Assembly: GCA_016213945.1 (NCBI GenBank)
Contig: JACQZF010000001.1
Location: 5,831-69,830 of the forward strand
Length of the DNA stretch: 64,000 nt
DNA from: Nitrospirota bacterium
GTDB taxonomy: Bacteria > Nitrospirota > Thermodesulfovibrionia > UBA6902
Direction: 5' to 3'
Positions 6,243-33,459 of the stretch are shown piece by piece. Numbering within the stretch: position 1 is the first letter of the stretch; every line of letters begins with the position of its first letter. A program made the position numbers and the translations under genes. The notes under the pieces are model-generated. The model was not told the DNA's origin and did no database searches. It was given only the letters and a program-made list of their open reading frames with translations.

Positions 6243-6763
6243 AAGCAAGTTTAACAACAACAGATAACTTAAAAATCCCCCTTAATCCCCCTTTTTCAAA
6301 GGGGGAGATACGTCATGTCCCCCTCTTTGGAAAAGAGGGATCAGGGGAGATTTTAAAATGGATTGCAGTTCTATTGATAACAGTCTCCTTTTTATTTCCA
6401 CTAATCTCAATTGCTGCTGCCGCAGAAAAAGGCACAGAAGAAGAATTAAAAGAACGGATAGCGATAACGAACAAGAAACGTGTCACTCCAAAGGAGATAA
6501 AAAGGTTCACAGATCAGGTCAAAGCCTATTTCTTTGAAACGGTGCCGGATGACGTTATCGAGAGCGCGATGAAAGAACTCACACCCGGAGAGGCGCTCGC
6601 GGCGATTGTCATCACAAACCTTTCCAAAAAGCCCGGCAAGGACATCATAAAAATGAAAAAAGACGGAAAAAGCTGGACCGAAATCGTCAATGCTTCCGGT
6701 TTGAAGATGAAAGACGTGGTGAAAGAGGTCAAGGAATTCCAGAAGACATCAGGCTGCGCATAA
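6239..6763 (+). CDS. Hypothetical secreted protein; 5' end uncertain (overlaps repeat R2)
   Basis: Hydrophobic signal-like segment WIAVLLITVSFLFPLISIAAAAEK followed by a charged, Lys-rich soluble domain. The first about 40 codons of the tracked ORF translate the palindromic repeat, so the true start is probably downstream. Confidence 0.35.
   Translation: MKASLTTTDNLKIPLNPPFSKGEIRHVPLFGKEGSGEILKWIAVLLITVSFLFPLISIAAAAEKGTEEELKERIAITNKKRVTPKEIKRFTDQVKAYFFETVPDDVIESAMKELTPGEALAAIVITNLSKKPGKDIIKMKKDGKSWTEIVNASGLKMKDVVKEVKEFQKTSGCA
6271..6358. repeat. G/C-rich palindromic repeat, family R2, copy A
   Basis: AAAATCCCCCTTAATCCCCCTTTTTCAAAGGGGGAG...CCCCCTCTTTGGAAAAGAGGGATCAGGGGAGATTTTAAAA. Near-identical copy at 33392..33459. 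Overlaps the 5' end of ORF 6239..6763. Confidence 0.75.
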
Positions 6764-6772
6764 GGAGGCTGC

Positions 6773-8158
6773 ATGAAAAATATTTTTACAAAACCGTGGT
6801 CGTTCGTGTGGGGCGGGTTCATGGTCGGCCTTGCACAGGTGATTTACTTTCTTAAATATGAGACACCGATACCTATTACTACGGGCCTTGCAAAGATGTT
6901 CGGCTCCATCGAGGAGAATATTACAAAGACCGACTATATTACAAGATTATATGACGCTGATATTCACTGGATCATAATCGGTATCCTGCTTGGAGCGTTC
7001 CTTGTCGCAATACTTGAGAGGGAGCACAAGGCGTGGGCGAAATATCCTCCCCGTGTTGCCCTGCTTGCATTCATAGGCGGGGCGACATTCGGACTCGGCA
7101 CAAGGCTTGCGCAGGGATGCACTACATGGCACTATTTAGGCGGCATCCCGGCCATGAGTCTTACGTCTATTGTAGTGGCTCTTGTAAGTATTCCGTTTGC
7201 ATTTCTTGCATTTATGCTGATGACAAAACTCGATGCAGGCGGATACTTAAAGCACCACGAAAAACACGCTACAGTCAAACACTGTGTTGAACTGGAATAC
7301 CCGCATGACACGCTGTGTTATGACCCCAAATATAAACCGGGCAAAGACCCTCTGAGAATAATACTGACTGCGTTCCTGTTCCTGCTGCTGGCGTCAGCCT
7401 TCTACACGGCATTTACAGGAGAGTCCACAGAGGGCATCAGCCGCTTGCCGTGGACAGAGATACTTCTCAAGACATTCATCGGTGTCCTGCTTGGCTTTGG
7501 CATCGGGAAAACCGGCTTCGGCACGGAATGCGCCGTTATGGCGCCCCACTCCCTTCACATGTCACAAAAACATTTCGATTCCATGAAGGTCGCAAAGATA
7601 ACGCAGACCATGTTTACAGGGCTCCTGCCCTTTACCGCGCTGCTTGTGGCTATACTCATGTTCAATATAACGATACTCGTTACGTGGATATTCTTCGGAT
7701 GGGACATTCCGGTTGTTGTTGAATCAGGCAGATACAAGTGGGGGTTTCATCTCGGGCATCTTGTCGGCGGGCCGCTGTTAGGCATAGGCGCGGTCCTCAT
7801 GATCGGCTGCGAGATAAGGTCCTACGCCCGGACAGCTATGGGTTATCTTACAGGGCTGGCTTCGCTTCCGGGTTTTTTCTTCGGATATCTGCCGTTCACA
7901 CTTTACAAGCCGCAGTTTGAACAGGTTTTTTTCTCCAAAGGTTTTATGGAGGCCAAGAATATCCTTGAGCTCTTACCGGAGAATCCGTATATCCAATATG
8001 GTTTTGCATGCTGTTATACCGGGGTCCTCGCAGCGCTTCTCGTGTGGGCGATCAGAAAAGGCTCTCAGATGACAAAAGTAACTCCCAAAGAGTATCTTAC
8101 AGAATCCACAGACGAGATATTCTTGAAAGGACTTAAAACTAAAAATCAGGAGGGATGA
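6773..8158 (+). CDS. YeeE/YedE-family membrane protein (putative thiosulfate/sulfur-compound transporter)
   Basis: Polytopic membrane protein with repeated Gly-rich, Cys-containing loops (GGATFGLGTRLAQGCTTWHYLGG; GGPLLGIGAVLMIGCEIRS; GKTGFGTECAV) like the YeeE/YedE repeat motifs. Neighbours are rhodanese and sulfur genes. Confidence 0.55.
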   Translation: MKNIFTKPWSFVWGGFMVGLAQVIYFLKYETPIPITTGLAKMFGSIEENITKTDYITRLYDADIHWIIIGILLGAFLVAILEREHKAWAKYPPRVALLAFIGGATFGLGTRLAQGCTTWHYLGGIPAMSLTSIVVALVSIPFAFLAFMLMTKLDAGGYLKHHEKHATVKHCVELEYPHDTLCYDPKYKPGKDPLRIILTAFLFLLLASAFYTAFTGESTEGISRLPWTEILLKTFIGVLLGFGIGKTGFGTECAVMAPHSLHMSQKHFDSMKVAKITQTMFTGLLPFTALLVAILMFNITILVTWIFFGWDIPVVVESGRYKWGFHLGHLVGGPLLGIGAVLMIGCEIRSYARTAMGYLTGLASLPGFFFGYLPFTLYKPQFEQVFFSKGFMEAKNILELLPENPYIQYGFACCYTGVLAALLVWAIRKGSQMTKVTPKEYLTESTDEIFLKGLKTKNQEG

Positions 8159-8997
8159 TACAGATGAAAGAATTCAAGATTCAAAATTTAATATTCAAAA
8201 TTATGGTTGTCTTTCCCATTTGCTCTATGCTCTTTGCCCTTTGCTTACCTCTTTCTGCAGACGCCCTTACCGCTGAAGAAGTCGTCAAAAAATCCCAGGA
8301 GGCGTTCTTCTACCAGGGAAAGGACTTCAAAGCGCGGGTAATGATGAAGCTTATAAGCAAAAGCGGACAGGAGAGAGTTCGTGAACTCACCATGCTGAGA
8401 AAAAATTACGGCGCATCCGGCGGCGAGCAGAAGTATTTCATGTATTTCTATCAGCCTGCCGACGTGAAGGACATGACGTTCATGGTTTATAAATATCCGG
8501 CGAAGGACGATGACAGATGGCTATTTGTGCCTGCGATCAATATGGTGCGCAGGATTGCCGCGCAGGACAAAAGCTCAAGCTTTGTAGGATCTGATTTCAC
8601 ATACGAGGACGTTTCCGGCAGGGATATAGAAGACGATACCCATGAAATTGTAAAGGAAGAAAAACTCGGCGCAAATGATTGCTTCGTAATAAAGAGCGCT
8701 CCAAAGAAAGCTGATGTTGATTACAGCTATAAGCTTTCATGGATTGACAAGGGCAATTTCCTGCCTTTGAAAGATGAGTACTATGACAAAAAAGGCGGGC
8801 TCTACAGGGTATTCAGCGGTGAGGAAATCAAAGACGTGAAAGGTTTTCCTACTGTAACAAAGAGGACCATGAAAAACCTCTCGAGCGGCCACAGGACTGA
8901 GGTAACATATGTTAAAGCAGATTACAACATCAACATAGAGGATAATCTTTTCAGCGAACGCTTTCTCAAACAGCCGCCGAGAAAGTGGATAGAGTGA
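8155..8997 (+). CDS. Outer-membrane lipoprotein-sorting (LolA-like / DUF1329-type) periplasmic protein
   Basis: Signal peptide, about 280 aa. Its composition resembles LolA-fold partners of MMPL/RND exporters. Translationally coupled (ATGA overlap) to the upstream gene. Confidence 0.55.
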   Translation: MIQMKEFKIQNLIFKIMVVFPICSMLFALCLPLSADALTAEEVVKKSQEAFFYQGKDFKARVMMKLISKSGQERVRELTMLRKNYGASGGEQKYFMYFYQPADVKDMTFMVYKYPAKDDDRWLFVPAINMVRRIAAQDKSSSFVGSDFTYEDVSGRDIEDDTHEIVKEEKLGANDCFVIKSAPKKADVDYSYKLSWIDKGNFLPLKDEYYDKKGGLYRVFSGEEIKDVKGFPTVTKRTMKNLSSGHRTEVTYVKADYNINIEDNLFSERFLKQPPRKWIE

Positions 8998-9644
8998 GAT
9001 CTGTTGTTGAAGCCTTTGACCATCTTGCAGAAGATTATGACAAATGGTTCGATGCCCCCGAAGGGAAAATACTTTTTGATGCAGAGATCGAGGCAGTAAA
9101 GCTTCTTATGAAAGATATTTCGAAGCCATTCATTGAGATCGGGGTAGGAACAGGGAGATTTGCAAAGGCATTGGGAATTGAGTTTGGCATTGACCCTTCT
9201 CAAGAGGTTTTGAAAATAGCAGAAAAGCGCGGGATAAAGGTGAAGATGGCAACGGGCGAGAAACTGCCTTTTGAAGATGAATCCTTCGGCGGCGTATTTA
9301 TACTTTTTACGCTGTGTTTTGTGGAAAACCCTCAAAAGGTGATTTCCGAGGCCAAAAGAGTCTTAAAGAAAGCTGGAGGACTGATTGTTGGGATAATTAA
9401 TAGAGAAAGCCAGTGGGGTAAATTCTATCAGAGAAAAAAGAACGACGGACATCCTATTTATAAACATGCAATGTTTTATAGCGTCAGTGAGGTTAAAGAA
9501 ATAATAGAAAAGGCAGGCTTGAGTGTTGAGGCGTATTCATCAACATTATGTCAGCCACCATCGGAAAAGCCTGTGAAAGAGATTGTAAATAATAAATTGG
9601 TACATGATGCAGGTTTTATTTGTATCCGGGCAAAAAAACTTTAA
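8985..9644 (+). CDS. Class I SAM-dependent methyltransferase
   Basis: Motif I IEIGVGTGRFAKALG; acidic loop FEDESFGGVFI. GTG start overlapping the upstream stop. Confidence 0.7.
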   Translation: MDRVRSVVEAFDHLAEDYDKWFDAPEGKILFDAEIEAVKLLMKDISKPFIEIGVGTGRFAKALGIEFGIDPSQEVLKIAEKRGIKVKMATGEKLPFEDESFGGVFILFTLCFVENPQKVISEAKRVLKKAGGLIVGIINRESQWGKFYQRKKNDGHPIYKHAMFYSVSEVKEIIEKAGLSVEAYSSTLCQPPSEKPVKEIVNNKLVHDAGFICIRAKKL

Positions 9645-9694
9645 TATTCCCTTCTGTGAGGGAGAATAAAAAAAAATCAAAGGAGGACACTAAC

Positions 9695-10105
9695 ATGGTA
9701 ATCACAGATTATATAATGCTATTGCACAAAAGGGCTTCAATAAAGCCTGGTTCAACCGGGCGGGAAATTGCTTACAAGCTTATGTCAACCGGCCTGCCTG
9801 GGCTTCCGGTAGTAAATGAAAGTGACGAGGTCATAGGAGTGGTGACAGCATTTGATCTTCTTGGAAATATACGGGAAGGAGTGGACCTCTCTGAAATTGC
9901 CGCGGAGAAGATAATGTCAAAAGAGCCAAAGACCGCTGATATGAAGACTTCCGCCGAGGAGCTTATAGAAATAATGCTCGAAAACAATTTCACGATGATC
10001 CCTGTTGTAAAAGACAGAAAGCTTGTGGGAATAATAGACAGAACTTCTTTATTAAATGCCTACGTAGAGCCGGTGCTTCATCGATATTTTGGTGAACACA
10101 AATGA
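9695..10105 (+). CDS. CBS-domain pair protein
   Basis: Two CBS motifs (LPGLPVVNESDEVIGVVTAFDLL; FTMIPVVKDRKLVGIIDRTSLL). Start moved to the ATG at 9695, which follows AAAGGAGG. Confidence 0.7.
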   Translation: MVITDYIMLLHKRASIKPGSTGREIAYKLMSTGLPGLPVVNESDEVIGVVTAFDLLGNIREGVDLSEIAAEKIMSKEPKTADMKTSAEELIEIMLENNFTMIPVVKDRKLVGIIDRTSLLNAYVEPVLHRYFGEHK

Positions 10106-11343
10106 TAAGGCTTATTTTGATTCTCTTGCTTGCGACAAGCATTGCGTATCTATCTGCTTATGCTGAAGATGTAAGCCTGCACGGCTTTCTCCAGGGCAAC
10201 TATTCTGTTGATACCGCTAAATCAAATCCAAACGGTAAGGACTTCAAATGGGCGGAGGAAAGAGTCCAGTTAAAGCTTGATGCAAGCAAAGAGCCGTTCC
10301 GTCTGTTTTTGAAAACCGACATCTTCTACGACCACATTGACGATGCATCCCATTTAGACGTGAGAGAGGGGTATGCCGATTACACGTCTTCAATCTGGGA
10401 TGCAAGAACCGGCAGACAGATTATCACATGGGGGTTTGGGGATTTGATCTTTATCAACGATGTATTCCCGAAAGACTATGAGGCATTTTTCTCTGGGAGG
10501 CCGCTGGAATATCTGAAGATCGGTAGTGATGCTGTAAAGATCGGCATGTATCCGTCCTTTGCCTCTGCCGAGTTGATTATTATCCCGTTCTTTGAACCGA
10601 ACAACTTTCCCGATCACAAGAGATTCTTCATGTTTAATCCCATGCCTGCTGTAACAGAGAGGGAAGAAGAAAAACCGGCAACTACATTTGAAAACACGGA
10701 AGTTGCCTTCAGATTATATCGTGATGTGGCGGGCATGGATGCGTCATTGTATTTCTATCGCGGCTTTTTCAGGCAGCCTTCAATGCTTCCTGACAGTATA
10801 ACATCACCGGCAAAGATCGACCTCGTTTATCCTGAGCTTACCGTTTACGGCGCGAGCCTTCAGGGCAGGGCGTTAGATGGAGTTCTCAGTCTTGAGGCAG
10901 GATATTATGATTCAAGAGAAGACAGGGACGGCACAGACCCGATGGTCCCGAATTCACAGACAAGGTTTCTCGTTGGCTATCAGAGACAGATGTGGGAAGA
11001 CTGCACCCTCGGCCTTCAATACTACAGCGAATACATGGATGATTATTCAGAGTATGAAGAGAATCTCCCCTCCGGATTTCCGCAGGAAAAGAAACTGCAC
11101 CAGCTTGCCTCCGTGAGGCTTACACAATTTTTGATACATCAGACACTGCGGTTTTCCTTCTTTTCCTTCTACAGTCCGTCAGATGATGATTATCTGTTAA
11201 ACCCGGAAGTCAAATACAATTTCACCGATTCCGTGTGGGCGGCAGTTGGAGCGAGTGTATTTGGCGGCGGTGATGAGTGGGACCAGTTCGGGAGTCTTGA
11301 TGAGAATGACAATATTTATGTGCAAATAAGATATGAATTTTAA
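10102..11343 (+). CDS. Putative outer-membrane beta-barrel protein (DUF1302-like)
   Basis: Signal peptide MIRLILILLLATSIAYLSAYA. Alternating hydrophobic/aromatic beta-strand pattern. C-terminal aromatic residue (YVQIRYEF) typical of outer-membrane barrels. ATGA overlap with upstream gene. Confidence 0.5.
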   Translation: MIRLILILLLATSIAYLSAYAEDVSLHGFLQGNYSVDTAKSNPNGKDFKWAEERVQLKLDASKEPFRLFLKTDIFYDHIDDASHLDVREGYADYTSSIWDARTGRQIITWGFGDLIFINDVFPKDYEAFFSGRPLEYLKIGSDAVKIGMYPSFASAELIIIPFFEPNNFPDHKRFFMFNPMPAVTEREEEKPATTFENTEVAFRLYRDVAGMDASLYFYRGFFRQPSMLPDSITSPAKIDLVYPELTVYGASLQGRALDGVLSLEAGYYDSREDRDGTDPMVPNSQTRFLVGYQRQMWEDCTLGLQYYSEYMDDYSEYEENLPSGFPQEKKLHQLASVRLTQFLIHQTLRFSFFSFYSPSDDDYLLNPEVKYNFTDSVWAAVGASVFGGGDEWDQFGSLDENDNIYVQIRYEF

Positions 11344-11470
11344 CCTACAGTAAACCTTATCTTTGCGAAGTTTCAAAGTGACTGGATCATGATTGAAGCT
11401 GAATTAAATTTTTGTCTGTCCGGTCGCTGTTTTCTTTGGAGTTTCTTTAATTAAAAACAGAATAAAAAAA

Positions 11471-11501
11471 CTCCAGCAGCCGAAAAAATCGGCCGCTGGA
11501 G
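11471..11501. terminator. Bidirectional rho-independent terminator between convergent genes
   Basis: Hairpin CTCCAGCAGCCGA-aaaaa-TCGGCCGCTGGAG flanked by an A7 run upstream and TTTCTCTT downstream, so there is a U-run after the stem on both strands. Confidence 0.65.
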
Positions 11502-11520
11502 TTTCTCTTACGATCTTCCA

Positions 11521-11823
11521 TTACCCGCCGGCATACCCGCCAGGCACATCGCTGTCAGTAAGTGGAACGGACGAAGTAGTTTCACTCTCAACACCGAATT
11601 TACTCCAGTCAATCGGGCAGGATTTGGAGAAAATTTCCATCTTCCACTCAACTGACTCTATAAGCTCATTCAGGTGTCTCATGTGGGAACCCAAGACCTT
11701 CTTGTCCTTTCCCTCCATGTACTCGATCTCGTTCACTAACCCGTTGAGTCTGCTCTTAATATCAGAGAGCTCTTTATACAGCATGTCACAATATCCTTTT
11801 ATGTCAATATGTTTTACCGCCAT
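11521..11823 (-). CDS. Hypothetical protein (100 aa)
   Basis: Clean ORF followed by a strong terminator. No recognisable family. Confidence 0.4.
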   Translation of the reverse strand: MAVKHIDIKGYCDMLYKELSDIKSRLNGLVNEIEYMEGKDKKVLGSHMRHLNELIESVEWKMEIFSKSCPIDWSKFGVESETTSSVPLTDSDVPGGYAGG

Positions 11824-12050
11824 ATTCAGGGCCTCCTTTCCCAGGCCATATAGCCTGTCACCGGGCTGCGTTATGATTCACGGCCCGATGTCTTCTTCTA
11901 ATTTAATCGTATCGCGATTTTTGACGGCTGTCAAGGCCATTGGTAGGGTTCAACAACTATTGTCTAAGAAATTGTCATTATTGCTACTCTATGCGGCAAT
12001 ATGCTTATTCGCTCATTACAGGCGAAAATCCCTTGTACGGATATTAGCGG

Positions 12051-13070
12051 TTACTTCTGTCCCCAGCGAGCCCCTACTATTATCTCCTCGCTGCTTGTCA
12101 CGATAATGGCGGAGGATGTTGTCGGCTGAACTGAAACGATTTGTATCTTGCCTGTTGACCGCTCTACAGGCACATCTGCAAGTGTTGAAAAGACATCCCC
12201 TGCTTCAAGGCCATCATTTCGACCTTTGTCAAGAAAGACAATCGCGCCTTCCCCTGACATCTGAGTGTTTGAAAACGATTCAACCACGTAACCTTTTTTA
12301 TCGGGGGTCCTGACAACGCCGGGGATAAGGGGTGGCTCCATCTCCTGGTAAGGCAACAGTCCGTCGCTTACCTGAATATCTTCAAAAGACTCTGTTATCT
12401 TTGCCTTTGGCAGACCATTATCAGTCCCGGTAACTTCTACAATGCCGGTTACCCTTATCTGGTGCCCTAACTTTTTATGCGTTACAGGATGGTGAACTAT
12501 TTTTACGTCCCTGATTGTGAAGAACTTATTTTCAGGACCTACGTTCTTATTAAATTCAAGGTAAACAAAATCACCTCTTCCCAGCAGGGTGCGGTTTGTA
12601 GGCGAAGAAACTATCTTACCTATGCCGGGGAATTCATCCGCTATCCAGCCGCTTGATATGTAGAGGTTTTTATTGACTATATATTTCTTGCCTGCTTCCG
12701 CGAGAAATTCAAATTTGGATGCGGCTTCAGTAGCAACTACCGGTTTATTGAATGGTTTAGAAAACGGCTTATCCGCAGCCTGGGTTTCTTTCTTTTCCTC
12801 GGGTGCAAGAGGTTTTGTCTCCTGCATTAACTTTTCTTTTGACGGGATTATAATCTTTTCGCCGGGATGAATAAGGTCCGGATTGCTGATATGAGGGTTA
12901 ACACTCCATATCTTGGGCCAGAGAAAATTATCCTGTAACTTACTGCCGGAAATACCCCAGAGAGTATCACTCTTCTGAACTGTGTATTCCTCGGATGAAG
13001 CATCCTGAGCGTGAGCGTAAGCGGCACAAAACAACAGAGAAATGACGAAGACAATAAAAAAATTTTTCAT
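12051..13070 (-). CDS. LysM domain-containing secreted protein
   Basis: Signal peptide. LysM motif YTVQKSDTLWGISGSKL...IHPGEKIIIP. Pro/Lys-rich linker, then a C-terminal domain. Confidence 0.7.
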   Translation of the reverse strand: MKNFFIVFVISLLFCAAYAHAQDASSEEYTVQKSDTLWGISGSKLQDNFLWPKIWSVNPHISNPDLIHPGEKIIIPSKEKLMQETKPLAPEEKKETQAADKPFSKPFNKPVVATEAASKFEFLAEAGKKYIVNKNLYISSGWIADEFPGIGKIVSSPTNRTLLGRGDFVYLEFNKNVGPENKFFTIRDVKIVHHPVTHKKLGHQIRVTGIVEVTGTDNGLPKAKITESFEDIQVSDGLLPYQEMEPPLIPGVVRTPDKKGYVVESFSNTQMSGEGAIVFLDKGRNDGLEAGDVFSTLADVPVERSTGKIQIVSVQPTTSSAIIVTSSEEIIVGARWGQK

Positions 13071-13181
13071 ATTATTTCTCCTTCTCCAATCAATATCTGC
13101 AAACTACACACCTTACAATATCGAAGTACGGCGCTTGTGTCAAGTTTAACATGCCTGTATGATATTTCCATGTAATTTATA

Positions 13182-15409: not shown

Positions 15410-15520
15410 TTAAATACCGTAATGAGAAGTCCGTGATGAGTTATGTGTGAAAAATAGATGCGCAGCAATAAAATAATTTATCATTTATCTCATTACGCGT
15501 TACACATCACAGTCTCTATG

Positions 15521-15913
15521 TTATCTCTTAGAGAACTGGAAGCGTGCTCTCGCGCCCTTTTGACCGTATTTCTTTCTTTCAACAGCCCTTGGATCTCTTG
15601 TAAGAAGGCCTTCTTTTTTTAGTTTTCCCCTGAAATCTGAATTGAGCAGCGTAAGTGCCCTTGATATGCCGTGCCTTATCGCTAAAGCCTGTCCGCTTAC
15701 ACCGCCGCCGTTAACCCTTATAGTGATATCATACTTGCCGACAACCCCTACAATGTTCAACGGCTGCTGTATTATCATCTTCATTGTCTCGTAAGGGAAA
15801 TAATCATTGAGTGGTTTTTTATTTACGGTAATATTCCCTGGTCCGGGCTTAATGAATACCTGAGCGATTGATGTCTTTCTTCTGCCGGTTGCGTTATATT
15901 GTATTTCCGCCAT
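15521..15913 (-). CDS. rpsI: 30S ribosomal protein S9
   Basis: 130 aa, C-terminal ...[23 protein letters not shown]. Confidence 0.9.
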
Positions 15914-15932
15914 CTTTTTAAAACTCCTTATG

Positions 15933-16364: not shown

Positions 16365-16509
16365 GTTACCTCTCAGAAATGCGTAATTTTGACGACATTA
16401 AACATAACATGATAATTGATTATGTTTTTAATTGTCAATATCGTGAATAAAAAAACAATTTGTTTTATTGTCAGCTTAGAATAAAAGCGGTAAGTGACGA
16501 CGATAAGCC

Positions 16510-17819: not shown

Positions 17820-17823
17820 GGAA

Positions 17824-20977: not shown

Positions 20978-20987
20978 TAATTAAAAT

Positions 20988-22283: not shown

Positions 22284-22505
22284 AACGTGACAGGAAAATA
22301 TGATTAGGACGCAATAGTTATAGGAAAATAGAACTTGGAAAGGCACAGCTCTCGGGGTAGGCCTCTACTGTAATGCAGATAGATAAAAATTTTTTTCCAA
22401 ACAAAACCGTCATAAGCTGTTTGTTGGCAGAATGCACCTGAACTTGTGAGAAGACATTTTAATAATTAAACATAATTTATTGATAATGGATAATATATCG
22501 AGAAA

Positions 22506-24617: not shown

Positions 24618-24679
24618 GATGCGTTTATAATAGTAAAGTTTTTTAGTTTATTTATTTAGCATCTTGTTATAATTATTTT

Positions 24680-24711
24680 CCAGCCATTCCCACGGAAGTG
24701 GGAACGGCTGG
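24680..24711. terminator. Putative terminator hairpin downstream of the histidine kinase
   Basis: CCAGCCATTCCCAC-ggaa-GTGGGAACGGCTGG (one mismatch), T-run before and A-run after. Confidence 0.4.
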
Positions 24712-24780
24712 AAATAAAAAAATAGATTCCTGCCGGGGTTTCCGAATTTTGATACGAGCAGGGATGAAAACATTTAATTT

Positions 24781-26835
24781 TTGAAAGGGCAACAGGTGGA
24801 ACTTTTAGCTTTATTAAGCGGTAGAGACGCTTTTGTTATACCTCATGTTAAGAACGCTTTAAAACAGTACACCGTTTATCCCCTGAAGACTGTGGAAGAG
24901 CTTGAGGATTTATACGGCAATATACCGCTCAATCTGCTTCTTATTGACACGGTATCTCACAAGCTGTCTGCCCTTGGGGAATTCTTAGGTAAACTGGATA
25001 GTGACAGGGTAGTGCTTATCGCACATGAAAAACTTGATAAATACACAAAGGAACAGCTTCCGCGAAGTGTATTTGACTCCATTGATGACGGTTCAATAAA
25101 AACCGAGCTTCCCGCGATAGTTGAACGGGCACTGGAAAGACAGAGATTCAGGAACGAATTGGGTTTATTAAAACAATCCAGGGACATAGTCTCTCCAGCG
25201 CATATGCAGATCTATAATAAGCATGAGTCTGAGGTGTTTTCAGGCCGTTATGATCCTGTCCCGAGCGGGAGATATGTCCACGAAAAAGTCATTGTCAATT
25301 TCGCCAAGATGCTGACGGCAAGCTTTGACATGCGAAAGCTCTTTAACCACTTTATTGATTCTGTCATGGAAATCGCCCGGGTAAGCAAGATGTCCATTAT
25401 GCTCAAAGACAAAGATGTCTTTCATGTCAAAACTCATTACGGGCTGGACCCTTATTTAGCCGACAACCTGCAGCTCAGGAAGGACAGCGCGCTCGCGTCC
25501 TGGCTTGCAAAGACAGGGCGTATAATGAGCAAGCCGGTCAATTTTTTCGATACGGAGTCGGTCAGTATCAAAAGCGACATGGAAATCCTGCAGTGCTCCG
25601 TTTCTTTTCCCATGATCCACAAAGGGAAATTAATAGGGATTTTCAATATTGACAATAAAATTACCGAGGAGCCTTTTTACAGGGAAGAACTGGAAATAAT
25701 TTATGTGCTCTGCAATTATCTCGCAGCCGCAATCAAAGACATCGACCTTTATCACCACATGTGGTATCAGAAGGAATTCACCAATAATATAATATCAAGC
25801 ATGAGCAGCGGCATGATCGCAATTGATAAAGACGAGAAGATAACCGTTTTCAATCAACAGGCCGCCGATATCCTGAGCCTGCATCCTTCGGACATGATAG
25901 CCAGGGACCTGAGGGCGCTGCCGTCGCCGCTTGGAGATATCCTGTATGAAACCTTGTCGGGAGGGAAGTCGTACAGGCGTTATGAGGCAGTTATCAATCC
26001 CGCAAGAATCCCCGTCGGAATAAACAGTTACAGGCTCATCGATGAACAGCAAAATCCCGTAGGGGCCGGAATTGTATTCTCCGATCTTTCCGATTCCAAG
26101 AAATTAGAGGAGCAGAAAAGCAGGGCTGATAAGCTCAAGGCGGTCAATGACCTGATTGCAAAAATAGCCCATGAGGTGAGAAATCCCCTGACCTCAATAC
26201 AAACCTACACTCAACTGCTCAACGAAAAGCATGAAGATGACGAGTTGCATAACTTTTATATCTCTTCCGTAAGTCAGTCAATCAACCGGCTGGATAAATT
26301 AATTGATAAACTCATAACCTTCTCAAGCACGCAGGATTACAACCTGAAAAAGGAAGACATAAACGACCTAATAAATGACGCTGCGGACTTTATTTCCAGG
26401 AATTTGCCGCAAACCCATAAACTCTCGAAGAACCTGACCGATAAAGCTTTTTACATAAATGCCGATAAGAGACAAGCAGTAAAGGCAATTTATTATCTTG
26501 TGCAAAGTATTATTGACAGGACGCCGGACGGAGCGCTAATCATGATTAATGCCCGCATAATAATGCAGGATTCTTTCTCCGCAGAAATAACGATAATGTA
26601 TGAAGGGGACAAGCTCGTCGAAGAAGAGCAAAACCTGTCAAAACCTCTGTTTGACATTGACAATCTCGATACAGAGCTGAATGTTCCTATAAGCCGCAAA
26701 ATCATTGAAGGCCACGCCGGAAGCCTGGATATAAAGAGCAAGGAAGGGATAAATACCTTTATTATTTCTTTGCCGGTTCTCGACAGGAGGGGCTCTGCAG
26801 TTTCATTTAAAGGAGGTTACGTTAATGAACAATAG
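24781..26835 (+). CDS. Sensor histidine kinase with GAF and PAS domains (cytoplasmic)
   Basis: H-box AHEVRNPLTSIQTY. C-terminal ATPase region ending ...GHAGSLDIKSKEGINTFIISLPV. GAF- and PAS-like middle domains. TTG start used by the track, so the 5' end is uncertain. Confidence 0.7.
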   Translation: MKGQQVELLALLSGRDAFVIPHVKNALKQYTVYPLKTVEELEDLYGNIPLNLLLIDTVSHKLSALGEFLGKLDSDRVVLIAHEKLDKYTKEQLPRSVFDSIDDGSIKTELPAIVERALERQRFRNELGLLKQSRDIVSPAHMQIYNKHESEVFSGRYDPVPSGRYVHEKVIVNFAKMLTASFDMRKLFNHFIDSVMEIARVSKMSIMLKDKDVFHVKTHYGLDPYLADNLQLRKDSALASWLAKTGRIMSKPVNFFDTESVSIKSDMEILQCSVSFPMIHKGKLIGIFNIDNKITEEPFYREELEIIYVLCNYLAAAIKDIDLYHHMWYQKEFTNNIISSMSSGMIAIDKDEKITVFNQQAADILSLHPSDMIARDLRALPSPLGDILYETLSGGKSYRRYEAVINPARIPVGINSYRLIDEQQNPVGAGIVFSDLSDSKKLEEQKSRADKLKAVNDLIAKIAHEVRNPLTSIQTYTQLLNEKHEDDELHNFYISSVSQSINRLDKLIDKLITFSSTQDYNLKKEDINDLINDAADFISRNLPQTHKLSKNLTDKAFYINADKRQAVKAIYYLVQSIIDRTPDGALIMINARIIMQDSFSAEITIMYEGDKLVEEEQNLSKPLFDIDNLDTELNVPISRKIIEGHAGSLDIKSKEGINTFIISLPVLDRRGSAVSFKGGYVNEQ

Positions 26836-27847
26836 CGAAAGAATACTTGTCATTGACGACGAACTCGCACCGAGGGAGTCGATACGAATGGTGCTTAAGG
26901 ACAAGTATGCGGTATCCACTGCCTCGGGAGCGCTTGAGGGATTAAGCATGATGTCGGAAAATTCCGTAGACCTCGTTGTGATGGACATAAAGATGCCGAA
27001 GATGGACGGCATAACCGCATTGCAGGAGATAAAGAAAAAGCATCCGGATACCGAGGTGATCCTTCTGACGGCGTATGCAAGTCTTGAAACGGCAAGGGAT
27101 GCCATACGCTTTGGCGCCTTTGACTACCTGTTAAAGCCATTTGACAAGGATGACATCCTGATGGTAGTAGAGAAAGGGCTGACTAAAAGGCGTTCAAGCA
27201 CGGGATTGAAAATGGAACGGGACATATTGCTTGACAGGGCTTCATATCTTGAAAAGCAGATAAGCGAAGCAAGGACCAATATCATGATGTGCTATGAAGG
27301 CACTGTCAATGCTTTGATCCTTACAATAGACGCCAAAGACCACTACACTTATAATCACTCAAACCGCGTCGCTAAACTGTCTTCTGCAATGGCTGAAGTG
27401 TTAGGGTCGCCCGAGAAGACAATAAAAGAAATAGAACATGCCGCCTGCATCCACGACATCGGCAAGATCGGCATTGACGAAAACATCCTCAAGAAAAACG
27501 GCCGGCTGACAAGTGACGAATATATGGAAATGAAAAAACATCCGGCCATAGGAGTCAGGATTGTGCAATCAGTGCCTTTTCTTGAAGATGCAATCCCGGT
27601 CATTCAGTATCATCATGAGCGATATGACGGCAAAGGATATCCTGAGGGAATAAAGGGAGATAAGATACCGCTGGCTGCGAGGATAGTTAATGTTGCCGAT
27701 GCTATTGACGCAATGATGTGCGCAAGACCCTACAGGGCCGCTCTCACGGTGGACAATGTGATGAGTGAGTTGACGAATAACGCGGGGACCCAGTTTGATC
27801 CCGCGATAGTTGAAATCATATTAAACGGCAGGGTCACGCTTTTTTAG
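26825..27847 (+). CDS. Response regulator, receiver + HD-GYP domain (c-di-GMP phosphodiesterase type)
   Basis: REC: LVIDDE...DLVVMDIKMPKMDG...LLKPF. HD-GYP: HSNRVAKL, IHDIGKIGI, HHERYDGKGYPEG. Confidence 0.8.
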   Translation: MNNSERILVIDDELAPRESIRMVLKDKYAVSTASGALEGLSMMSENSVDLVVMDIKMPKMDGITALQEIKKKHPDTEVILLTAYASLETARDAIRFGAFDYLLKPFDKDDILMVVEKGLTKRRSSTGLKMERDILLDRASYLEKQISEARTNIMMCYEGTVNALILTIDAKDHYTYNHSNRVAKLSSAMAEVLGSPEKTIKEIEHAACIHDIGKIGIDENILKKNGRLTSDEYMEMKKHPAIGVRIVQSVPFLEDAIPVIQYHHERYDGKGYPEGIKGDKIPLAARIVNVADAIDAMMCARPYRAALTVDNVMSELTNNAGTQFDPAIVEIILNGRVTLF

Positions 27848-27873
27848 ATCTTGCTCTCCGCGTAAGGGTCTTA

Positions 27874-28299
27874 CTAATTAAAAGCTGATTCCCTTGGTCC
27901 TTTCCCTTCCCTGACGCAAAAATTACCGGGCGGTCCGTTTCTGAGCGCTTCTTCTACCATATTCATAAGTCTCTTTTGGTCAAAAGGCTTCATAATAAAA
28001 CCGAACGCTCCGAGGTTTATGCCTTTTCTTATTGTTTCAAGGGCCGCAAATGCGGTCACAAATATTACCCCGATTCCGGGATGCCTTGTCTTTATCTCCT
28101 GCAAAGCGGTTATGCCGTCCATCCTCGGCATATTAATGTCAAGCAGCACCAGGTCAACAGAATTATTTGCCAGATAATCAAAGGCTTCTGCCGCCCCCCC
28201 GGCTGTTGCAACGGAGTACTTGTCTTTCAGGATAAAACTGAGGATTTCTCTTAACGCAAACTCGTCATCGACAATAAGTATTTTTGCTCTTTTCTCCAT
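27874..28299 (-). CDS. Single-domain response regulator (CheY-like receiver)
   Basis: ILIVDDE...DLVLLDINMPRMDGITALQEIK...MKPF. Close paralog of the REC domain of the convergent HD-GYP regulator. Confidence 0.8.
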   Translation of the reverse strand: MEKRAKILIVDDEFALREILSFILKDKYSVATAGGAAEAFDYLANNSVDLVLLDINMPRMDGITALQEIKTRHPGIGVIFVTAFAALETIRKGINLGAFGFIMKPFDQKRLMNMVEEALRNGPPGNFCVREGKGPRESAFN

Positions 28300-28416
28300 A
28301 CCATGTCTCTCTCAATATTCAATAAAATTTTTTTCAGGCTAAATCTTAGTTGGTTGGTTTAATCTAACATTTATTAAACCCGGTGTCACCTGTCCTTTTG
28401 TACAGGTACCTGATGT

Positions 28417-29220
28417 TTATTTCAGTCCAAGGACATCCTGCATATCGTAAAGTCCGGGCGTCTGCTTGTATACCCACAGGGCGGCTTTCAACGCTCCTCT
28501 GGCGAAAGTGTCCCTGCTTGAGGCCTTGTGCGTGATTTCTATCCTTTCACCAGGAGTCCCGAAGATGACCGTATGTTCACCGACAATGTCGCCTGCCCTG
28601 ACCGTCTGAATGCCGATTTCTTTCTTTGTCCTCTCACCTATTAAACCATGCCTTGCGTAAACTGCCGACTCCTCAAGGTTTCTGTCAAGCGCAGACGCGA
28701 TGACCTGGGCCATCTTAATTGCCGTGCCGGAGGGGGCGTCTTTTTTCATCCTGTGATGGGCCTCAACGATTTCAACATCATAGTCATCGCCGGTGACCTT
28801 TGCTATGTCTGCCAGGATTTTCAGAAGAAGATTCACCCCGACGCTCATGTTTGGAGCAAGAACGCACGGGACTTTTTGGGCGTATAAACTTACAAAATCT
28901 AATTCATCCCTGCTGAAGCCCGTTGTGCCGATAACTACAGGCACCGGTTTGTCCGAGAGAGACTTCAGGCATTCTATTGTTGCAGACGTGGAAGAAAAAT
29001 CCACAAGTACGTCAGCCTTCCCGGTGATATTCTTTACGCTGCCGGTGATCTTAATTCCGGAAGCACCAATGCCGATGACCTCCCCGATATCTCTTCCGAG
29101 GTCTTTATGATTTTTATTCTCTAAAGCTCCTGAGATCTTTATGTCCTTGAAATCCCCTGAAAGCGCGATAATGCGGCTGCCCATTCTCCCGGCAGCTCCC
29201 GATACGATCATGTTAATCAT
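28417..29220 (-). CDS. dapB: 4-hydroxy-tetrahydrodipicolinate reductase
   Basis: N-terminal [17 protein letters not shown] Rossmann motif. Conserved [15 protein letters not shown] region. Start moved to the internal ATG, which follows GGAGAACGGAA. Confidence 0.8.
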
Positions 29221-29401
29221 TTCCGTTCTCCTTTTCCGAAGGTGTCTGCCCTGCCTCATCGCTGAGCTTGCCCTCAATCCTGTATTCGTCAGAGGCCCAG
29301 GACCCAAGGTCAATGAGCTTGCACTTCTCAGAACAAAAAGGCCTGAAAGGGTTATTCTGCCATTCAGTCCATTTTTTGCAGGTAGGACACTTTACTTTCA
29401 T
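29213..29401 (-). CDS. yacG: DNA gyrase inhibitor YacG-like zinc-binding protein
   Basis: 62 aa; CPTCKK...[20 protein letters not shown] matches the YacG zinc-ribbon signature. Confidence 0.55.
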
Positions 29402-29452
29402 ATTTTTAAATCTGGAATATCCTTTAGCTTACTGAAAGGTTACCATATTTCT

Positions 29453-29511
29453 GTCATTCCGACTTGTTCGGAATCGCTCTTCAAGAAGGATTCCCGGCAA
29501 GCGGGAATGAC
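29453..29511. repeat. MITE/REP-like double-hairpin repeat, family R1, copy 2
   Basis: GTCATTCCGACTTGTTCGGAATC ... GATTCCCGGCAAGCGGGAATGAC. Confidence 0.75.
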
Positions 29512-29540
29512 AACAAAAACAAAGATTCAACTGAAACTTT

Positions 29541-30461
29541 TTATATTTCAATTGTTCCGTCAAAAACCTTCACTGCATCACCCGTCATATAAACATGATC
29601 GTCCTGTGCAGGCCAGTCAATGAGGAGCTTGCCTCCGGGAAGATGCATGGTGACTTTTCTGCCGGTCAACCCCAGCAGTGCTGAAGCAACCGCTGAGGCG
29701 GAAGCGCCTGTACCGCAGGCCATTGTCTCCCCTGCCCCTCTCTCCCAGACTCTCATCTTAATGTTTTTCCTGTTCAGTATTTGTATGAATTCAACATTCG
29801 TCCTGTTTGGAAAAAGCCTGTGGTTTTCGATAATGGGGCCATATTGTTCCACAGGAAATTTCCCGACATCTTTAACAACAATCACCGCATGGGGATTGCC
29901 CATGGAAACACAAGTGATCCTGAATGTCTTATCAGCTATTTTTAATGGATAATTGATAACAGGTTTAGGGTTACTCCCCCGTTGCCCCCCCTTACAAAGG
30001 GTAGGATTTAACTTCTGACTTCTGACTTCTGACTTCTGACTTACTTTCACCGGTATCTTCTCCGCTTCAAGCACTGGCTCTCCCATGTCGACTTCTATAA
30101 GGCTGCCGGTTTTTTTCAGATTCTTGGTCCCCGCAAGGGTCTCTACAGTTAGAACATCAATAAACGATTTTTGCTTTTGCGTTATCTTGCTGCGCAGTAT
30201 TTCATGCCATATGTATTGCCCCAGGCACCTTATCCCGTTGCCGCACATTTCAACTTCCGGGCCGTCCGCATTGAATATGCGCATTTTGAAATCAGCTAAT
30301 TCCGAATGACTCAACAGCAGCATCTGGTCAGCGCCGATGCCAAATCTCCTGTCGCAGAGTTTTTTTGCGAGCTCCGGAAGTTTCTTTAAATTCAAATTCC
30401 TGCTATCAATGACAACGAAGTCATTGCCGAGTGAATGCATCTTTGTAAATTGCAGTTTCAT
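29541..30461 (-). CDS. dapF: Diaminopimelate epimerase with an in-frame about 28-aa low-complexity insertion
   Basis: MHSLGNDFVVID and CGNGIRC active-site Cys motifs. 306 aa versus about 275-285 typical. The extra segment SQKSEVRSQKLNPTLCKGGQRGSNPKPV is encoded by the repeat at 29968..30039. Confidence 0.8.
   Translation of the reverse strand: MKLQFTKMHSLGNDFVVIDSRNLNLKKLPELAKKLCDRRFGIGADQMLLLSHSELADFKMRIFNADGPEVEMCGNGIRCLGQYIWHEILRSKITQKQKSFIDVLTVETLAGTKNLKKTGSLIEVDMGEPVLEAEKIPVKVSQKSEVRSQKLNPTLCKGGQRGSNPKPVINYPLKIADKTFRITCVSMGNPHAVIVVKDVGKFPVEQYGPIIENHRLFPNRTNVEFIQILNRKNIKMRVWERGAGETMACGTGASASAVASALLGLTGRKVTMHLPGGKLLIDWPAQDDHVYMTGDAVKVFDGTIEI
30012..30039. repeat. Tandem heptamer (CTTCTGA)x4 inside dapF, adjacent to a degenerate R2-like G/C element (29968..30004)
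   Basis: cttctgacttctgacttctgacttctga preceded by gggttactcccccgttgcccccccttacaaagggtagg, which resembles CCCCCTTTTTCAAAGGGGG of family R2. Confidence 0.7.
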
Positions 30462-31717
30462 TTTAAAAACTCCGGCATCTTTGTCTCCTTTATTAAATCC
30501 TTGTAAGTCTCTCTTTCACGGATTACAAAAAATTTATTCCCTTTAACCAGGACCTCAGCGACCCTGGGCCTGCCGTTGTAGTTTGAACTCATGGAGAACC
30601 CGTATGCACCGGCGCTCATAACAGCGAGCAGATCTCCAGCACGGGGAGCGTTAATCTTTCTCCCCTTCGCAAAGAAGTCGCCTGATTCGCATATCGGGCC
30701 GACTACGTCAACAAGCGCGAGCGGACGGTTGTTCTTTGCCACGTGCTGAATGTGATGGTAAGCATCGTACAGGCTCGGCCTTATGAGGTCGTTCATACCG
30801 GCGTCAACAATCACAAATTCCTTCTTGTGATGCTTTTTCAGATAAAGGACTTTTGTAACAAGCATCCCGGCGTTTCCGACAATGGACCTTCCCGGTTCAA
30901 TGATCAATGTAAAGTCATGCAGCTTTATCAGAGGCAGTATCGCCTTTGCAAGGTCCTTAGGCTGGGGCAGGTCCTCTTCCATGTTATAAGGGATCCCAAG
31001 GCCGCCGCCCATGTCAAGGTATTTAATTTCTATCCCCCGTGATTTCAATTCCTGCGCGAGCGCCAGGACCTTCTTTAACGCGTCAACAAAAGGGGTGATC
31101 CTGGTGATCTGGGAGCCTATGTGCTTGTGGATCCCGATGACCTTTATGTTCCTGAGCTTGTCTGCCAGGGTGTAATATTCAACCGCCTCATGGATCGGGA
31201 TGCCGAATTTGTGCTTCTTCAATCCCGTTGAAATATACGGATGCGTGGATGCGTTTATGTCGGGATTAACTCTCAGCGCTATCGGCGCCTTCACTCCGAG
31301 CTTCCCGGCTATCCTGTCAATGGCTGTCAACTCGTCAGAGGATTCTATATTGAACATGAGGATGCCGGATTTCAGGGCGTATGCAATTTCTTTTTCAGTC
31401 TTGCCGACCCCGGCATAAACAATTTTTTTGGCGGGTATGCCGGCTTTCAAGGCAAAGAAAAGCTCGCCGCCTGAGACAACGTCCGCGCCGCTTCCGGATT
31501 TTGCGAGAAGCCTTAAGATCGCCGGATTCGAATTCGCCTTCAGTGCAAAGCAGATCACATTTGGATAACCATCGAATGCCTCTTCATAAGCCTTGTAATG
31601 GTTAACAAGGGTATCGTGACTGTAGATGTAAACAGGCGAGCCTGCAGCTTCAACTATCTTCTTAACAGGAACGTTCTCTGCGTACAGTTCGGATTTTTTG
31701 TAATTAAAACAATTCAT
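30458..31717 (-). CDS. lysA: Diaminopimelate decarboxylase
   Basis: 419 aa Orn/DAP/Arg decarboxylase fold. PLP-Lys region CFALKANSNPAIL. C-terminal GAYGFSMSSNYNGRPR. Confidence 0.85.
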   Translation of the reverse strand: MNCFNYKKSELYAENVPVKKIVEAAGSPVYIYSHDTLVNHYKAYEEAFDGYPNVICFALKANSNPAILRLLAKSGSGADVVSGGELFFALKAGIPAKKIVYAGVGKTEKEIAYALKSGILMFNIESSDELTAIDRIAGKLGVKAPIALRVNPDINASTHPYISTGLKKHKFGIPIHEAVEYYTLADKLRNIKVIGIHKHIGSQITRITPFVDALKKVLALAQELKSRGIEIKYLDMGGGLGIPYNMEEDLPQPKDLAKAILPLIKLHDFTLIIEPGRSIVGNAGMLVTKVLYLKKHHKKEFVIVDAGMNDLIRPSLYDAYHHIQHVAKNNRPLALVDVVGPICESGDFFAKGRKINAPRAGDLLAVMSAGAYGFSMSSNYNGRPRVAEVLVKGNKFFVIRERETYKDLIKETKMPEFLK

Positions 31718-31776
31718 GGTTGTTTAATGCATGTTGATATAAGATTTGCCATATCTCTAATATTCCGGCGCGGCAT

Positions 31777-31863
31777 GTCATTCCGACTTGTTCGGAATCT
31801 TTCTTTATTGTTTTAGCGAATCAGCCTGGACCGAAAGAAGGATTCCCGACAAGCGGGAATGAC
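31777..31863. repeat. MITE/REP-like double-hairpin repeat, family R1, copy 3 (long spacer)
   Basis: GTCATTCCGACTTGTTCGGAATC ...47 nt... GATTCCCGACAAGCGGGAATGAC, in the divergent lysA/tilS promoter region. Confidence 0.75.
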
Positions 31864-31924
31864 ATACAATTCAACTTTCCTCTTTACTTTCTGATTCTAT
31901 TTTTAAGTTATAATTAATCTGCTT

Positions 31925-33373
31925 ATGGAACTCCTGAAAAAAGTAAAAGAGACAATCAGCAAATACTCAATGCTTTCAGAAGGTGATTGCGTCCTTATAG
32001 GGCTTTCCGGAGGTCCTGACTCAGTATGCCTTGCCGCTATTTTAGACAAACTAAAAAAGGATTTCAATCTTTCTCTTTCAGCGGTCTATGTAGACCACGG
32101 TCTGAGGCCGGATGAGGTTGAGGCTGAAAAGGCATTTTGCAGAGAATTTTGCGATGGGTTCGGGATCAATTTCTTCTGCGAATCAGTTGATGTCAAAGGT
32201 CATGCAAGTGATACAGGGCTGAGCAAACAGGAAGCCGCAAGGGAACTTCGGTATAAAATATTCGATGAGATTTCAGGGAAGATAAGCGCAACAAAGATAG
32301 CCCTCGGCCACAACGCGGATGATCAGGCGGAGACACTTTTAATGATGGTCCTGCGGGGCGCAGGCAGAAAGGGCTTGGCAGGGATCCCGCCCGTGAGAGA
32401 TATAGCGTTGAGCGTTCAGCGCTCAGCATTAGGCGTCAAAAAAAATGTATTAATAATCAGGCCGCTAATCGAGATTGAACGTAAGGACATTGAAGAATTT
32501 TTTAATTCCGGCCCGTCACCCGTCACCCGTCACCCGTCACTGCCTTTTATGATCGACTCCTCCAACCTCAGGAAAGATTATTTCAGGAACTGGATAAGGC
32601 TCACTGTTATGCCTGAACTCAGGAAAAGAAACCCGTCGCTCGTGCAGAACATCTGCAGGACTATGGACATCCTGCGTGAGGAAGACAACTACCTTGAGAT
32701 CATCGTTACAAAAACGCTCATGAAATTAATAACCAACAAAACCGCCGACACTATAGAACTCTTTCTTGTCCCACTTGAGACTATGGAGAAACCAATATTA
32801 AGACGTGTCCTCAGGAGGGCGATTGATGCAACAGAAGGACTGAGAGAGATCGGCTTTGTTCATATTGAGGACATCATCAATCTCGTAAAGAAAGGCGCGT
32901 CAGGCGACAGGATATATCTGCCGCAGGGCATTAGGGTGATCAAGTCGTATGCCACGTTAAAACTGACATCCGCGCCGCCTGTGAAAATAAATTCTCACAG
33001 CCTCGATGTCCCAGGAGAGCTTGCTTTGAAAGAGGCAGGGGTTGTGATCAAGTCTTCTTTGACGGGCAGCGTGGAAGGTTACGGAGACGGAAAATCAGAT
33101 ATTGTTTTCGACGCGGACAAAATCAACCTGCCGCTGACCGTAAGACACCGGAAAGAAGGCGACTGTTTCTATCCCGCGGGTTTCGGGAAAAGAAAAAAGC
33201 TCCAGGATTTTTTCGTGGATGAAAAGATACCGAGAGACAAAAGGGACGCGGTGCCGGTTGTCGTTTCCGGTGATGACGTTGTCTGGATTGCGGGTTACAG
33301 GGCTGACGGAAGATTCACGGCAACAGACAGGACAGAAAAGTTTTTAAGGCTTATAATATCAAGGATGAAATAA
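31925..33373 (+). CDS. tilS: tRNA(Ile)-lysidine synthetase with an in-frame heptamer-repeat insertion
   Basis: PP-loop LIGLSGGPDSVCLA. 482 aa. Contains (CCGTCAC)x4 encoding SPVTRHPSL. Confidence 0.8.
   Translation: MELLKKVKETISKYSMLSEGDCVLIGLSGGPDSVCLAAILDKLKKDFNLSLSAVYVDHGLRPDEVEAEKAFCREFCDGFGINFFCESVDVKGHASDTGLSKQEAARELRYKIFDEISGKISATKIALGHNADDQAETLLMMVLRGAGRKGLAGIPPVRDIALSVQRSALGVKKNVLIIRPLIEIERKDIEEFFNSGPSPVTRHPSLPFMIDSSNLRKDYFRNWIRLTVMPELRKRNPSLVQNICRTMDILREEDNYLEIIVTKTLMKLITNKTADTIELFLVPLETMEKPILRRVLRRAIDATEGLREIGFVHIEDIINLVKKGASGDRIYLPQGIRVIKSYATLKLTSAPPVKINSHSLDVPGELALKEAGVVIKSSLTGSVEGYGDGKSDIVFDADKINLPLTVRHRKEGDCFYPAGFGKRKKLQDFFVDEKIPRDKRDAVPVVVSGDDVVWIAGYRADGRFTATDRTEKFLRLIISRMK
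32513..32540. repeat. Tandem heptamer (CCGTCAC)x4 inside tilS
   Basis: ccgtcacccgtcacccgtcacccgtcac. Its reverse complement (GTGACGG)n matches the intergenic GTGACGR motif family at 1519, 15437 and 56083. Confidence 0.7.
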
Positions 33374-33391
33374 TAGTCCACAAAATCCCCC

Positions 33392-33459
33392 TTTATCCCC
33401 CTTTTTCAAAGGGGGACTTAAACCCCCTCTTTGGTAAAGAGGGGTTAGGGGAGATTTTA
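33392..33459. repeat. G/C-rich palindromic repeat, family R2, copy B
   Basis: AAAATCCCCCTTTATCCCCCTTTTTCAAAGGGGGACTTAAACCCCCTCTTTGGTAAAGAGGGGTTAGGGGAGATTTTAC, between tilS and gltX. Confidence 0.75.

Follow-up and report, generated by a model that had tools for sequence, protein, structure and literature searches.

What kind of element is R2, a short G/C-rich palindromic repeat found twice in a 64,000-nt stretch of a Nitrospirota metagenome-assembled genome (contig JACQZF010000001.1, assembly GCA_016213945.1; here called the window, on the whole of which R2 positions are numbered), and how does a relative of it come to lie within the coding sequence of dapF? R2 consists of two ~35-nt modules in inverted orientation, each containing a hairpin followed by a purine run that mirrors the purine arm of the hairpin. 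This combination defines the class II purine-motif intrastrand triplex, and R2 probably adds a new sequence family to the intrastrand triplex motifs already known, represented by the BoxC/PIT/TM_ECO elements of E. coli. A first-pass annotation, made from the sequence alone, had seen the terminal repeats and the hairpins but missed the outer G-run that mirrors the purine arm; its interpretation was otherwise largely right, with refinements concerning the insertion site of copy A and the age of the dapF insertion.

Module architecture of R2

Two R2 copies are present in the window, each composed of two modules in opposite orientation. E-values refer to a profile of 400 modules taken from other genomes.

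6272..6354, plus strand: R2 copy A, inverted module pair with a 12-nt spacer, 83 nt, inside the 5' end of open reading frame (ORF) 6239-6763
6272..6307, minus strand: module A-left, TCCCCCTTT-GAA-AAAGGGGGA-TTA-AGGGGGATTTT, class II (class IV on the plus strand), E 1.7e-13
6319..6354, plus strand: module A-right, CCCCCTCTTT-GGA-AAAGAGGG-ATCA-GGGGAGATTTT, class II, E 3.9e-10
33382..33458, plus strand: R2 copy B, inverted module pair with a 6-nt spacer, 77 nt, in the tilS-gltX spacer
33382..33416, minus strand: module B-left, class II on the minus strand, E 1.5e-12
33423..33458, plus strand: module B-right, CCCCCTCTTT-GGT-AAAGAGGGG-TTA-GGGGAGATTTT, E 1.4e-09

Both copies had been reported before, with the start of copy B placed at 33392, which is 10 nt too far to the right. 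Copy A reads AAAATCCCCC TTAAT CCCCCTTTTTCAAAGGGGG AGATACGTCATGT CCCCCTCTTTGGAAAAGAGGG ATCA GGGGAGATTTT; copy B follows the same plan with a shorter spacer, and its end lies 27 nt upstream of the gltX start codon. The terminal inverted repeats and the two internal hairpins of each copy match the earlier description, and R2 is a genuine palindromic repeat family. The halves were paired by a repeat finder at 90-97% identity, the window contains 2-5 occurrences of the hairpin patterns where shuffles predict 0-0.02, and the profile matched exactly the four R2 modules (E 1e-13 to 1e-9). A weak module-like hairpin, CCCCTTTTTCAAGAGGG, was also observed at 56908-56924 (E=0.12 against the same profile).

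On one strand, each module is composed of a pyrimidine arm (C5-6 T3), a 3-nt loop, a purine arm (A3 G5-6), a linker of 2-4 nt and a third run (G5-6 A T3). Modules start with AAATCC and finish with GGATTT, and a 36-nt module reads CCCCCTCTTTGGTAAAGAGGGGTTAGGGGAGATTTT. Where a module has an interrupted G-run, its third run mirrors the purine arm instead of repeating it in direct or inverted form, as in AAAGAGGGG-TTA-GGGGAGA, AAAGGAGGGG-GT-GGGGGAGGA and AAAGGGAGA-CC-GAGAGGGA. The third run was closer to the mirror than to the direct copy in 14 of 15 such modules, and when third runs were shuffled among modules the observed score was reached in only 1 of 2000 trials. The lengths of the G-runs in the purine arm and in the third run also co-vary. 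R2 was placed among the intrastrand triplex motifs because its outer G-run mirrors the hairpin purine arm.

Other explanations of the outer G-run were considered. An alternative Watson-Crick hairpin and a direct-repeat protein-binding site were both rejected, since the interrupted variants are mirror-symmetric rather than direct or inverted copies. A G-quadruplex or i-motif was rejected as well, given that each strand holds only three runs and that the A interruptions co-vary.

The window was scanned under the ITxF class II criterion (pyrimidine, purine and reverse-Hoogsteen purine blocks on one strand, stems of 6-15 nt), with 8-nt stems, loops of 1-6 nt and at most one mismatch, and with 40 Markov sequences as controls. 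Only the four R2 modules were detected, each with 0 mismatches, and the controls gave 0 matches. In module B-right, 9-10 candidate base triads can be formed without interruption. DNA folding limited to Watson-Crick pairs, the only ones modelled by ViennaRNA, leaves the third run unpaired next to a 9-bp hairpin. In the predicted triplex this run would lie antiparallel to the purine arm in the major groove of the hairpin, forming G*G-C, A*A-T and T*A-T triads, and the complementary strand could adopt a pyrimidine-motif (class IV) version. The trailing ATTT may prolong the third strand by forming T*A-T triads with the A3/T3 clamp, which would explain its conservation.

Relation to the BoxC/PIT elements

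Hoyne & Maher reportedly described, in 2000, the BoxC/PIT elements of E. coli and other Proteobacteria. R2 shares with these elements the block order, the TTA-type second loop and the mirror purine run; both are G/C-rich, ~35 nt long, multicopy, mostly intergenic and arranged in inverted pairs, and both show partial deletions that leave the hairpin, at unstable loci. Neither has a known function or mobilising enzyme in the literature searched. This comparison relies on Holder et al. 2015 (PMC4666352), in which BoxC, PIT and TM_ECO are one intrastrand triplex motif, laid out as CCCTCNCCC N3-6 GGGNGAGGG N3 GGGNGAGGG with TTA or CCG as the second loop. According to the same paper, TM_ECO forms inverted 'palindromic' pairs that are prone to lose parts while keeping the hairpin, and its loci are unusually variable.

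The block layout, the mirror covariation and the over-represented multicopy status of an intrastrand triplex motif were all found in R2, although the sequences of the two families differ. The R2 stems are C5-6T3, A3G5-6 and G5-6AT3, whose A/T clamp contributes T*A-T triads, whereas those of TM_ECO are CCCTCNCCC, GGGNGAGGG and GGGNGAGGG. The TM_ECO pattern had 0 matches in the window, and the R2 sequence family was not found in the text of Holder et al. 2015 (PMC4666352) that was searched. Literature searches by sequence or peptide gave nothing but primer noise. R2 also has a wider taxonomic spread, which includes Nitrospirota, Chloroflexota, Desulfobacterota, Binatia and Kapaibacteria besides Proteobacteria, and differs from BoxC/PIT in having in-frame copies inside genes.

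Distribution of the modules across genomes

An exact 22-mer of the left half (ATCCCCCTTTTTCAAAGGGGGA) was used as the core query and was found in at least 119 genome stretches, so that many copies exist elsewhere. Hosts among the listed matches include Nitrospirota, Chloroflexota (Dehalococcoidia), Desulfobacterota, Methylococcales, Xanthomonadales, Thiotrichales, Acinetobacter, Pasteurellaceae, several Betaproteobacteria, Binatia, Glassbacteria and Kapaibacteria. Among the complete genomes in which the module is abundant are those of Methylotuvimicrobium buryatense 5G, Luteimonas sp. R10 and Acinetobacter thermotolerans ANC 7454. The conserved unit is the ~35-nt module and not the pair: modules occur singly, as inward-facing pairs (R2-like), as outward-facing pairs and in clusters, with singles and outward-facing pairs as common as inward-facing ones. 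Within the window, the halves of copies A and B are near-identical and their central spacers are unrelated (GATACGTCATGT in A, CTTAAA in B), indicating that whole R2 units were not simply copied as one unit.

Modules were also found in Mu-like phages, Acinetobacter plasmids and 14 viral contigs. The portal gene gp29 of Haemophilus phage SuMu (L122, 1500-1545) carries one module in frame, encoding KSPLAPLFQRGE. Mannheimia phage 3927AP2 has a related module between genes, and an Acinetobacter plasmid carries two modules that face outward.

The variety of arrangements is also what would be expected of a REPIN, that is, a REP doublet which a single-copy RAYT (Y1/HUH) transposase would mobilise in trans, and in which the G-run symmetry would be incidental. 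R2 is indeed an inverted doublet of ~35-nt imperfect palindromes, and like the REP/REPIN/BIME elements its modules occur as singlets, inverted doublets and BIME-like clusters of alternating orientation, mostly intergenic, without target-site duplications and with long vertical persistence at orthologous sites. However, R2 modules lack the GTAG or CGTC tag of the two REP superfamilies (PMC3733652), REP families are lineage-specific whereas the R2 module is found across phyla, REP sequences have no third mirror-symmetric block, and a REPIN leaves the mirror covariation unexplained. When the 1948 ORFs around the 119 loci (up to 8 kb each, 0.8 Mb) were clustered all-against-all, no RAYT and no recurrent transposase-like family travelling with the modules was found, the recurrent clusters being generic ABC-ATPase and signalling domains. 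A REPIN origin is thus rather improbable.

Target-site duplications or a target motif were rejected as a source of evidence, since terminal A-runs blur the boundaries and the flank repeats vary (AAAA and ACAAAA for copies A and B, respectively, and absent from most other elements).

Copy A at the start of ORF 6239

The two genes concerned in the insertion of copy A are the following:

5718..6242, plus strand: rhodanese-domain gene, whose stop overlaps the start codon of ORF 6239 (ATGA)
6239..6763, plus strand: ORF 6239, secreted protein with no function assigned, in which codons 12-39 correspond to copy A

Copy A had been interpreted as the first 40 or so codons of ORF 6239, abutting the rhodanese stop after a possible insertion between two coupled genes. 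The frame does read through the repeat, at codons 12-39, but the element starts 30 nt after the stop, and it lies inside the 5' end of the downstream gene rather than between the genes, with the ATGA overlap intact. The same type of overlap is present in the related loci L125 and L126.

As for the question raised earlier, whether orthologous ORFs start downstream of the repeat, the repeat-encoded N-terminus is missing in 38 of 42 orthologues, in which a short basic leader comes first, then a hydrophobic signal peptide (e.g. MKTKTIKKLLIL), and the ancestral signal peptide of ORF 6239 starts at about codon 39. The extension was found in three proteins, including that of the window. This site holds no module in L125 and three in L126; the window has two, and L127, in which an internal deletion is present, about one. 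The three filled versions differ in length by 27 and 39 nt, and all are in frame. L126 and L127 are contigs of one assembly (GCA_040961535.1) with different 5' repeat versions (three modules and about one), which suggests strain-level polymorphism or a mixed bin.

Copy A is therefore located inside the leader (n-region) of the ORF 6239 signal peptide. Translation would run through the repeat and the added residues would lengthen a leader that is later cleaved off, making the insertion nearly neutral. A search with the 30-residue peptide encoded by copy A against 1.84 billion protein representatives gave 30 matches, and was rejected as a means of counting in-frame insertions: the peptide is too short, the short matches are translated repeat arrays and the three longest (473-2620 residues) are spurious.

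Pfam searches of the flanking genes identified an MMPL transporter, the rhodanese, ORF 6239-6763 without known identity, a YeeE-type sulphur transporter and a LolA-like protein, followed by dapB, yacG, dapF, lysA, tilS and gltX. The start of the LolA-like gene (ORF 8155-8997) contains heptamer arrays at 8171-8202 (AATTCAA) and 8219-8245 (TTTGCTC), which encode its N-terminal signal region (MIQMKEFKIQNLIFKI...CSMLFALCLPL), so that here too a repeat occupies a cleavable leader.

A decayed module and a heptamer array in dapF

The dapF gene contains a lineage-specific insert made of the following parts:

29541..30461, minus strand: dapF (diaminopimelate epimerase, 306 residues), host gene of the decayed module
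29961..30047, minus strand: lineage-specific DapF insert, about residues 139-167, predicted disordered surface loop
29974..30010, minus strand: decayed compact module, coding strand TTAAATCC-TACCCTTT-GT-AAGGGGGGG-CAAC-GGGGGAG, encoding LNPTLCKGGQRG
30011..30042, minus strand: heptamer tandem array, ACTTCTG x4.6 on the plus strand (coding TCAGAAG), adjoining the decayed module and encoding SQKSEVRSQK

The earlier proposal of a degenerate R2 relative in dapF stands. The segment is in frame, adds about 24-29 residues and includes a heptamer array, but the module alone reached only E=0.25 against the module profile, which is not significant. The segment can be regarded as a decayed R2 module because in orthologues an intact module occupies this position, between the same flanks. 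In the dapF genes of L128 and L129, intact compact modules were found in frame (AAATCCCCCC-TTA-CCCCCCTTT-ACT-AAAGGGGGG-CTG-GGGGAGGATT), and the module of the window shares its flanks with that of L129 and lies beside an expanded (TCAGAAG)n array. In L120 the module is lost and two other heptamer arrays are present; in L130 there is no insert. Triplex-motif modules have been captured in frame in two or three genes.

Comparison with solved DapF structures split the protein into residues 1-141 and 166-304, which in the best match are separated by 3 residues. In the AlphaFold2 model (mean predicted local distance difference test score, pLDDT, 87.8) residues 143-162 form a coil with pLDDT <50 between confident strands. 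Among 120 retrieved homologues the loop ranges from 5 to 43 residues, and basal forms of 274-282 residues have no insert. The peptide of the module (e.g. NPPLPPFTKGGxGG) is recognisable in nine of the 120, that of the window included, while other homologues have loop peptides derived from heptamer arrays. The basal orthologues without the segment, and the lack of sequence conservation among its carriers, indicate that it was inserted and is not ancestral, as had been proposed. The insertion is old and common to a clade, and has later decayed in the window and been remodelled in relatives. The DapF loop is a long-lived repeat hotspot in an essential enzyme.

A second lineage-specific stretch, KITQKQKSF, was observed at DapF residues 91-100 (~30162-30191); this block has a pLDDT of 55 and falls in gaps relative to the solved structures.

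Turnover in the tilS-gltX spacer and other repeats

Gain and loss of modules at orthologous sites were found in the tilS-gltX spacer as well as at the 5' end of ORF 6239. The spacer contains copy B in the window and in L120 (DapF 85% identical), is empty in L121 (12-nt spacer) and is occupied in L129 by an unrelated R1-type element. The copies B of the window and of L120 share 97% identity, compared with ~91% in the flanking DNA; the two substitutions are both in hairpin loops.

This conservation could point to a role as RNA, in which R2 would serve gltX and the rhodanese operon as a transcription terminator, a hairpin that stabilises the mRNA or a small regulatory RNA. The predicted RNA folds of copies A and B are strong (-47 and -40 kcal/mol, z-scores -5.9 and -3.7), which answers the structure check proposed in the first-pass annotation, and both copies lie within same-strand gene pairs and would hence be transcribed. 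Yet no Rfam 15 family matched R2 at its gathering threshold (apart from tRNA-Leu, the gathering and permissive searches returned only generic miRNA-like hairpins below threshold), promoter and terminator scans called nothing on either copy, and the elements occur in both orientations and also inside coding sequence. The variable occupancy of the tilS-gltX site in L121 and L129 is a further objection, and according to PMC4666352 PIT elements have no promoter or terminator activity and purine-motif triplexes do not form in RNA. An RNA function is therefore very unlikely.

A classical miniature inverted-repeat transposable element, a deletion derivative of an insertion sequence recognised by its DDE transposase through the terminal inverted repeats AAAATCCCCC/GGGGAGATTTT, would fit the size (~80 bp), the long hairpin fold (DNA folding -24 and -23 kcal/mol for copies A and B, besides the RNA values above) and the variable presence at orthologous sites, but is extremely improbable, given that flank repeats are inconsistent or absent instead of a fixed-length target-site duplication, that singles and outward-facing pairs are as common as inward-facing ones, that the unrelated A and B spacers argue against production as one unit, and that no parent insertion sequence was found around the 119 loci.

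Other repeats were observed in the window. The R1 family (3301-3365, 29448-29512 and 31775-31865) consists of paired hairpins, TGTCATTCC...GGAATC facing GATTCC...GGAATGACA, and R1-type elements also occur at a site in L080 and, in L126, in the spacer that follows the ORF 6239 orthologue. The tilS gene contains in-frame heptamer arrays at 32404-32427 (AGCGTTC x3.4) and 32512-32540 (CCCGTCA x4.1), the first within a 16-residue insert present in the window, L120 and L128 and absent from TilS of L121, L129 and L130. A 186-nt inverted repeat (26960-27145 and 27979-28164, arms 72% complementary) probably corresponds to the receiver domains of two oppositely oriented response-regulator genes, as judged by synteny with L120.

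Two other systems resemble parts of this picture. The Rickettsia palindromic elements (RPE), said to have been described by Ogata et al. in 2000, are likewise small palindromic repeats found in frame in housekeeping genes at fold-compatible surface positions, a likeness of insertion mode only; compared by description, they differ from R2 in host lineage, sequence and size (100-150 bp) and are not described as triplex motifs. The cyanobacterial STRR heptanucleotide tandem repeats, reportedly described by Mazel et al. in 1990, share with the arrays of dapF, tilS and ORF 8155 the tandem 7-nt units of several sequences scattered over the genome, whereas the arrays of the window belong to another phylum, are in frame inside genes and, in dapF, lie beside a triplex module.

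Weighing the triplex reading and a possible mechanism

Several points weigh against classifying R2 as an intrastrand triplex motif and against the events proposed below. Triplex formation by its modules is predicted from their sequence, and TM_ECO formed its stable triplex only in isolated single strands, with none detected in duplex DNA or by footprinting in vivo (PMC4666352). The mirror covariation comes from ~4-5 independent sequence classes, one of which (GGGAGG/GGAGGG) fits a mirror and a direct copy alike. The cross-phylum identity is notable, but it is weakened by the exact 22-mer search, which partly forces it, and by a low-complexity sequence that, being fixed by structure, could arise convergently. 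The loci examined yielded neither a mobilising enzyme nor a target-site duplication nor a clean insertion boundary, and the link between modules and heptamer arrays is only positional.

If R2 is an intrastrand triplex motif, the fold would form only transiently, on single-stranded DNA during replication or transcription, where it may impede polymerases and lead to local slippage, deletion and duplication. Slippage promoted by the fold would explain both the turnover of modules and the adjacent heptamer arrays. Copies would persist only where they are harmless, as in intergenic spacers, the cleaved signal-peptide leader and the disordered surface loop of DapF. For the origin of new copies a single-strand-based process would be favoured, either by an HUH-type enzyme acting in trans or by template switching.

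A broader possibility is that all these modules belong to one pan-bacterial family of triple-helix-forming mobile DNA (C5T3/A3G5/G5AT3), which spread across phyla by a single-strand-specific process with phages and plasmids as carriers, and whose repeated in-frame entry seeded fast-evolving loops, along with heptamer arrays, in essential enzymes, DapF and TilS among them. This is considered unlikely.

Meaning of the finding

In the literature searched, neither the function of intrastrand triplex repeats of the BoxC/PIT kind nor the way they spread has become known since their description. R2 takes this kind of repeat well beyond the Proteobacteria, and adds natural covariation that favours the triplex fold as well as dated events of gain, loss and remodelling at orthologous sites. 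Triplex modules can be carried in frame in essential genes, and these captures, together with the repeat-hotspot loop of an essential enzyme, would be of interest to specialists. For annotation, gene callers extend ORF 6239 through the repeat, such arrays give rise to many spurious small 'proteins', and the length variants of DapF and TilS in these lineages are repeat insertions and not new domains. If the pan-bacterial mobile family were real, triplex repeats would be a general source of protein-loop variation, beyond intergenic clutter.

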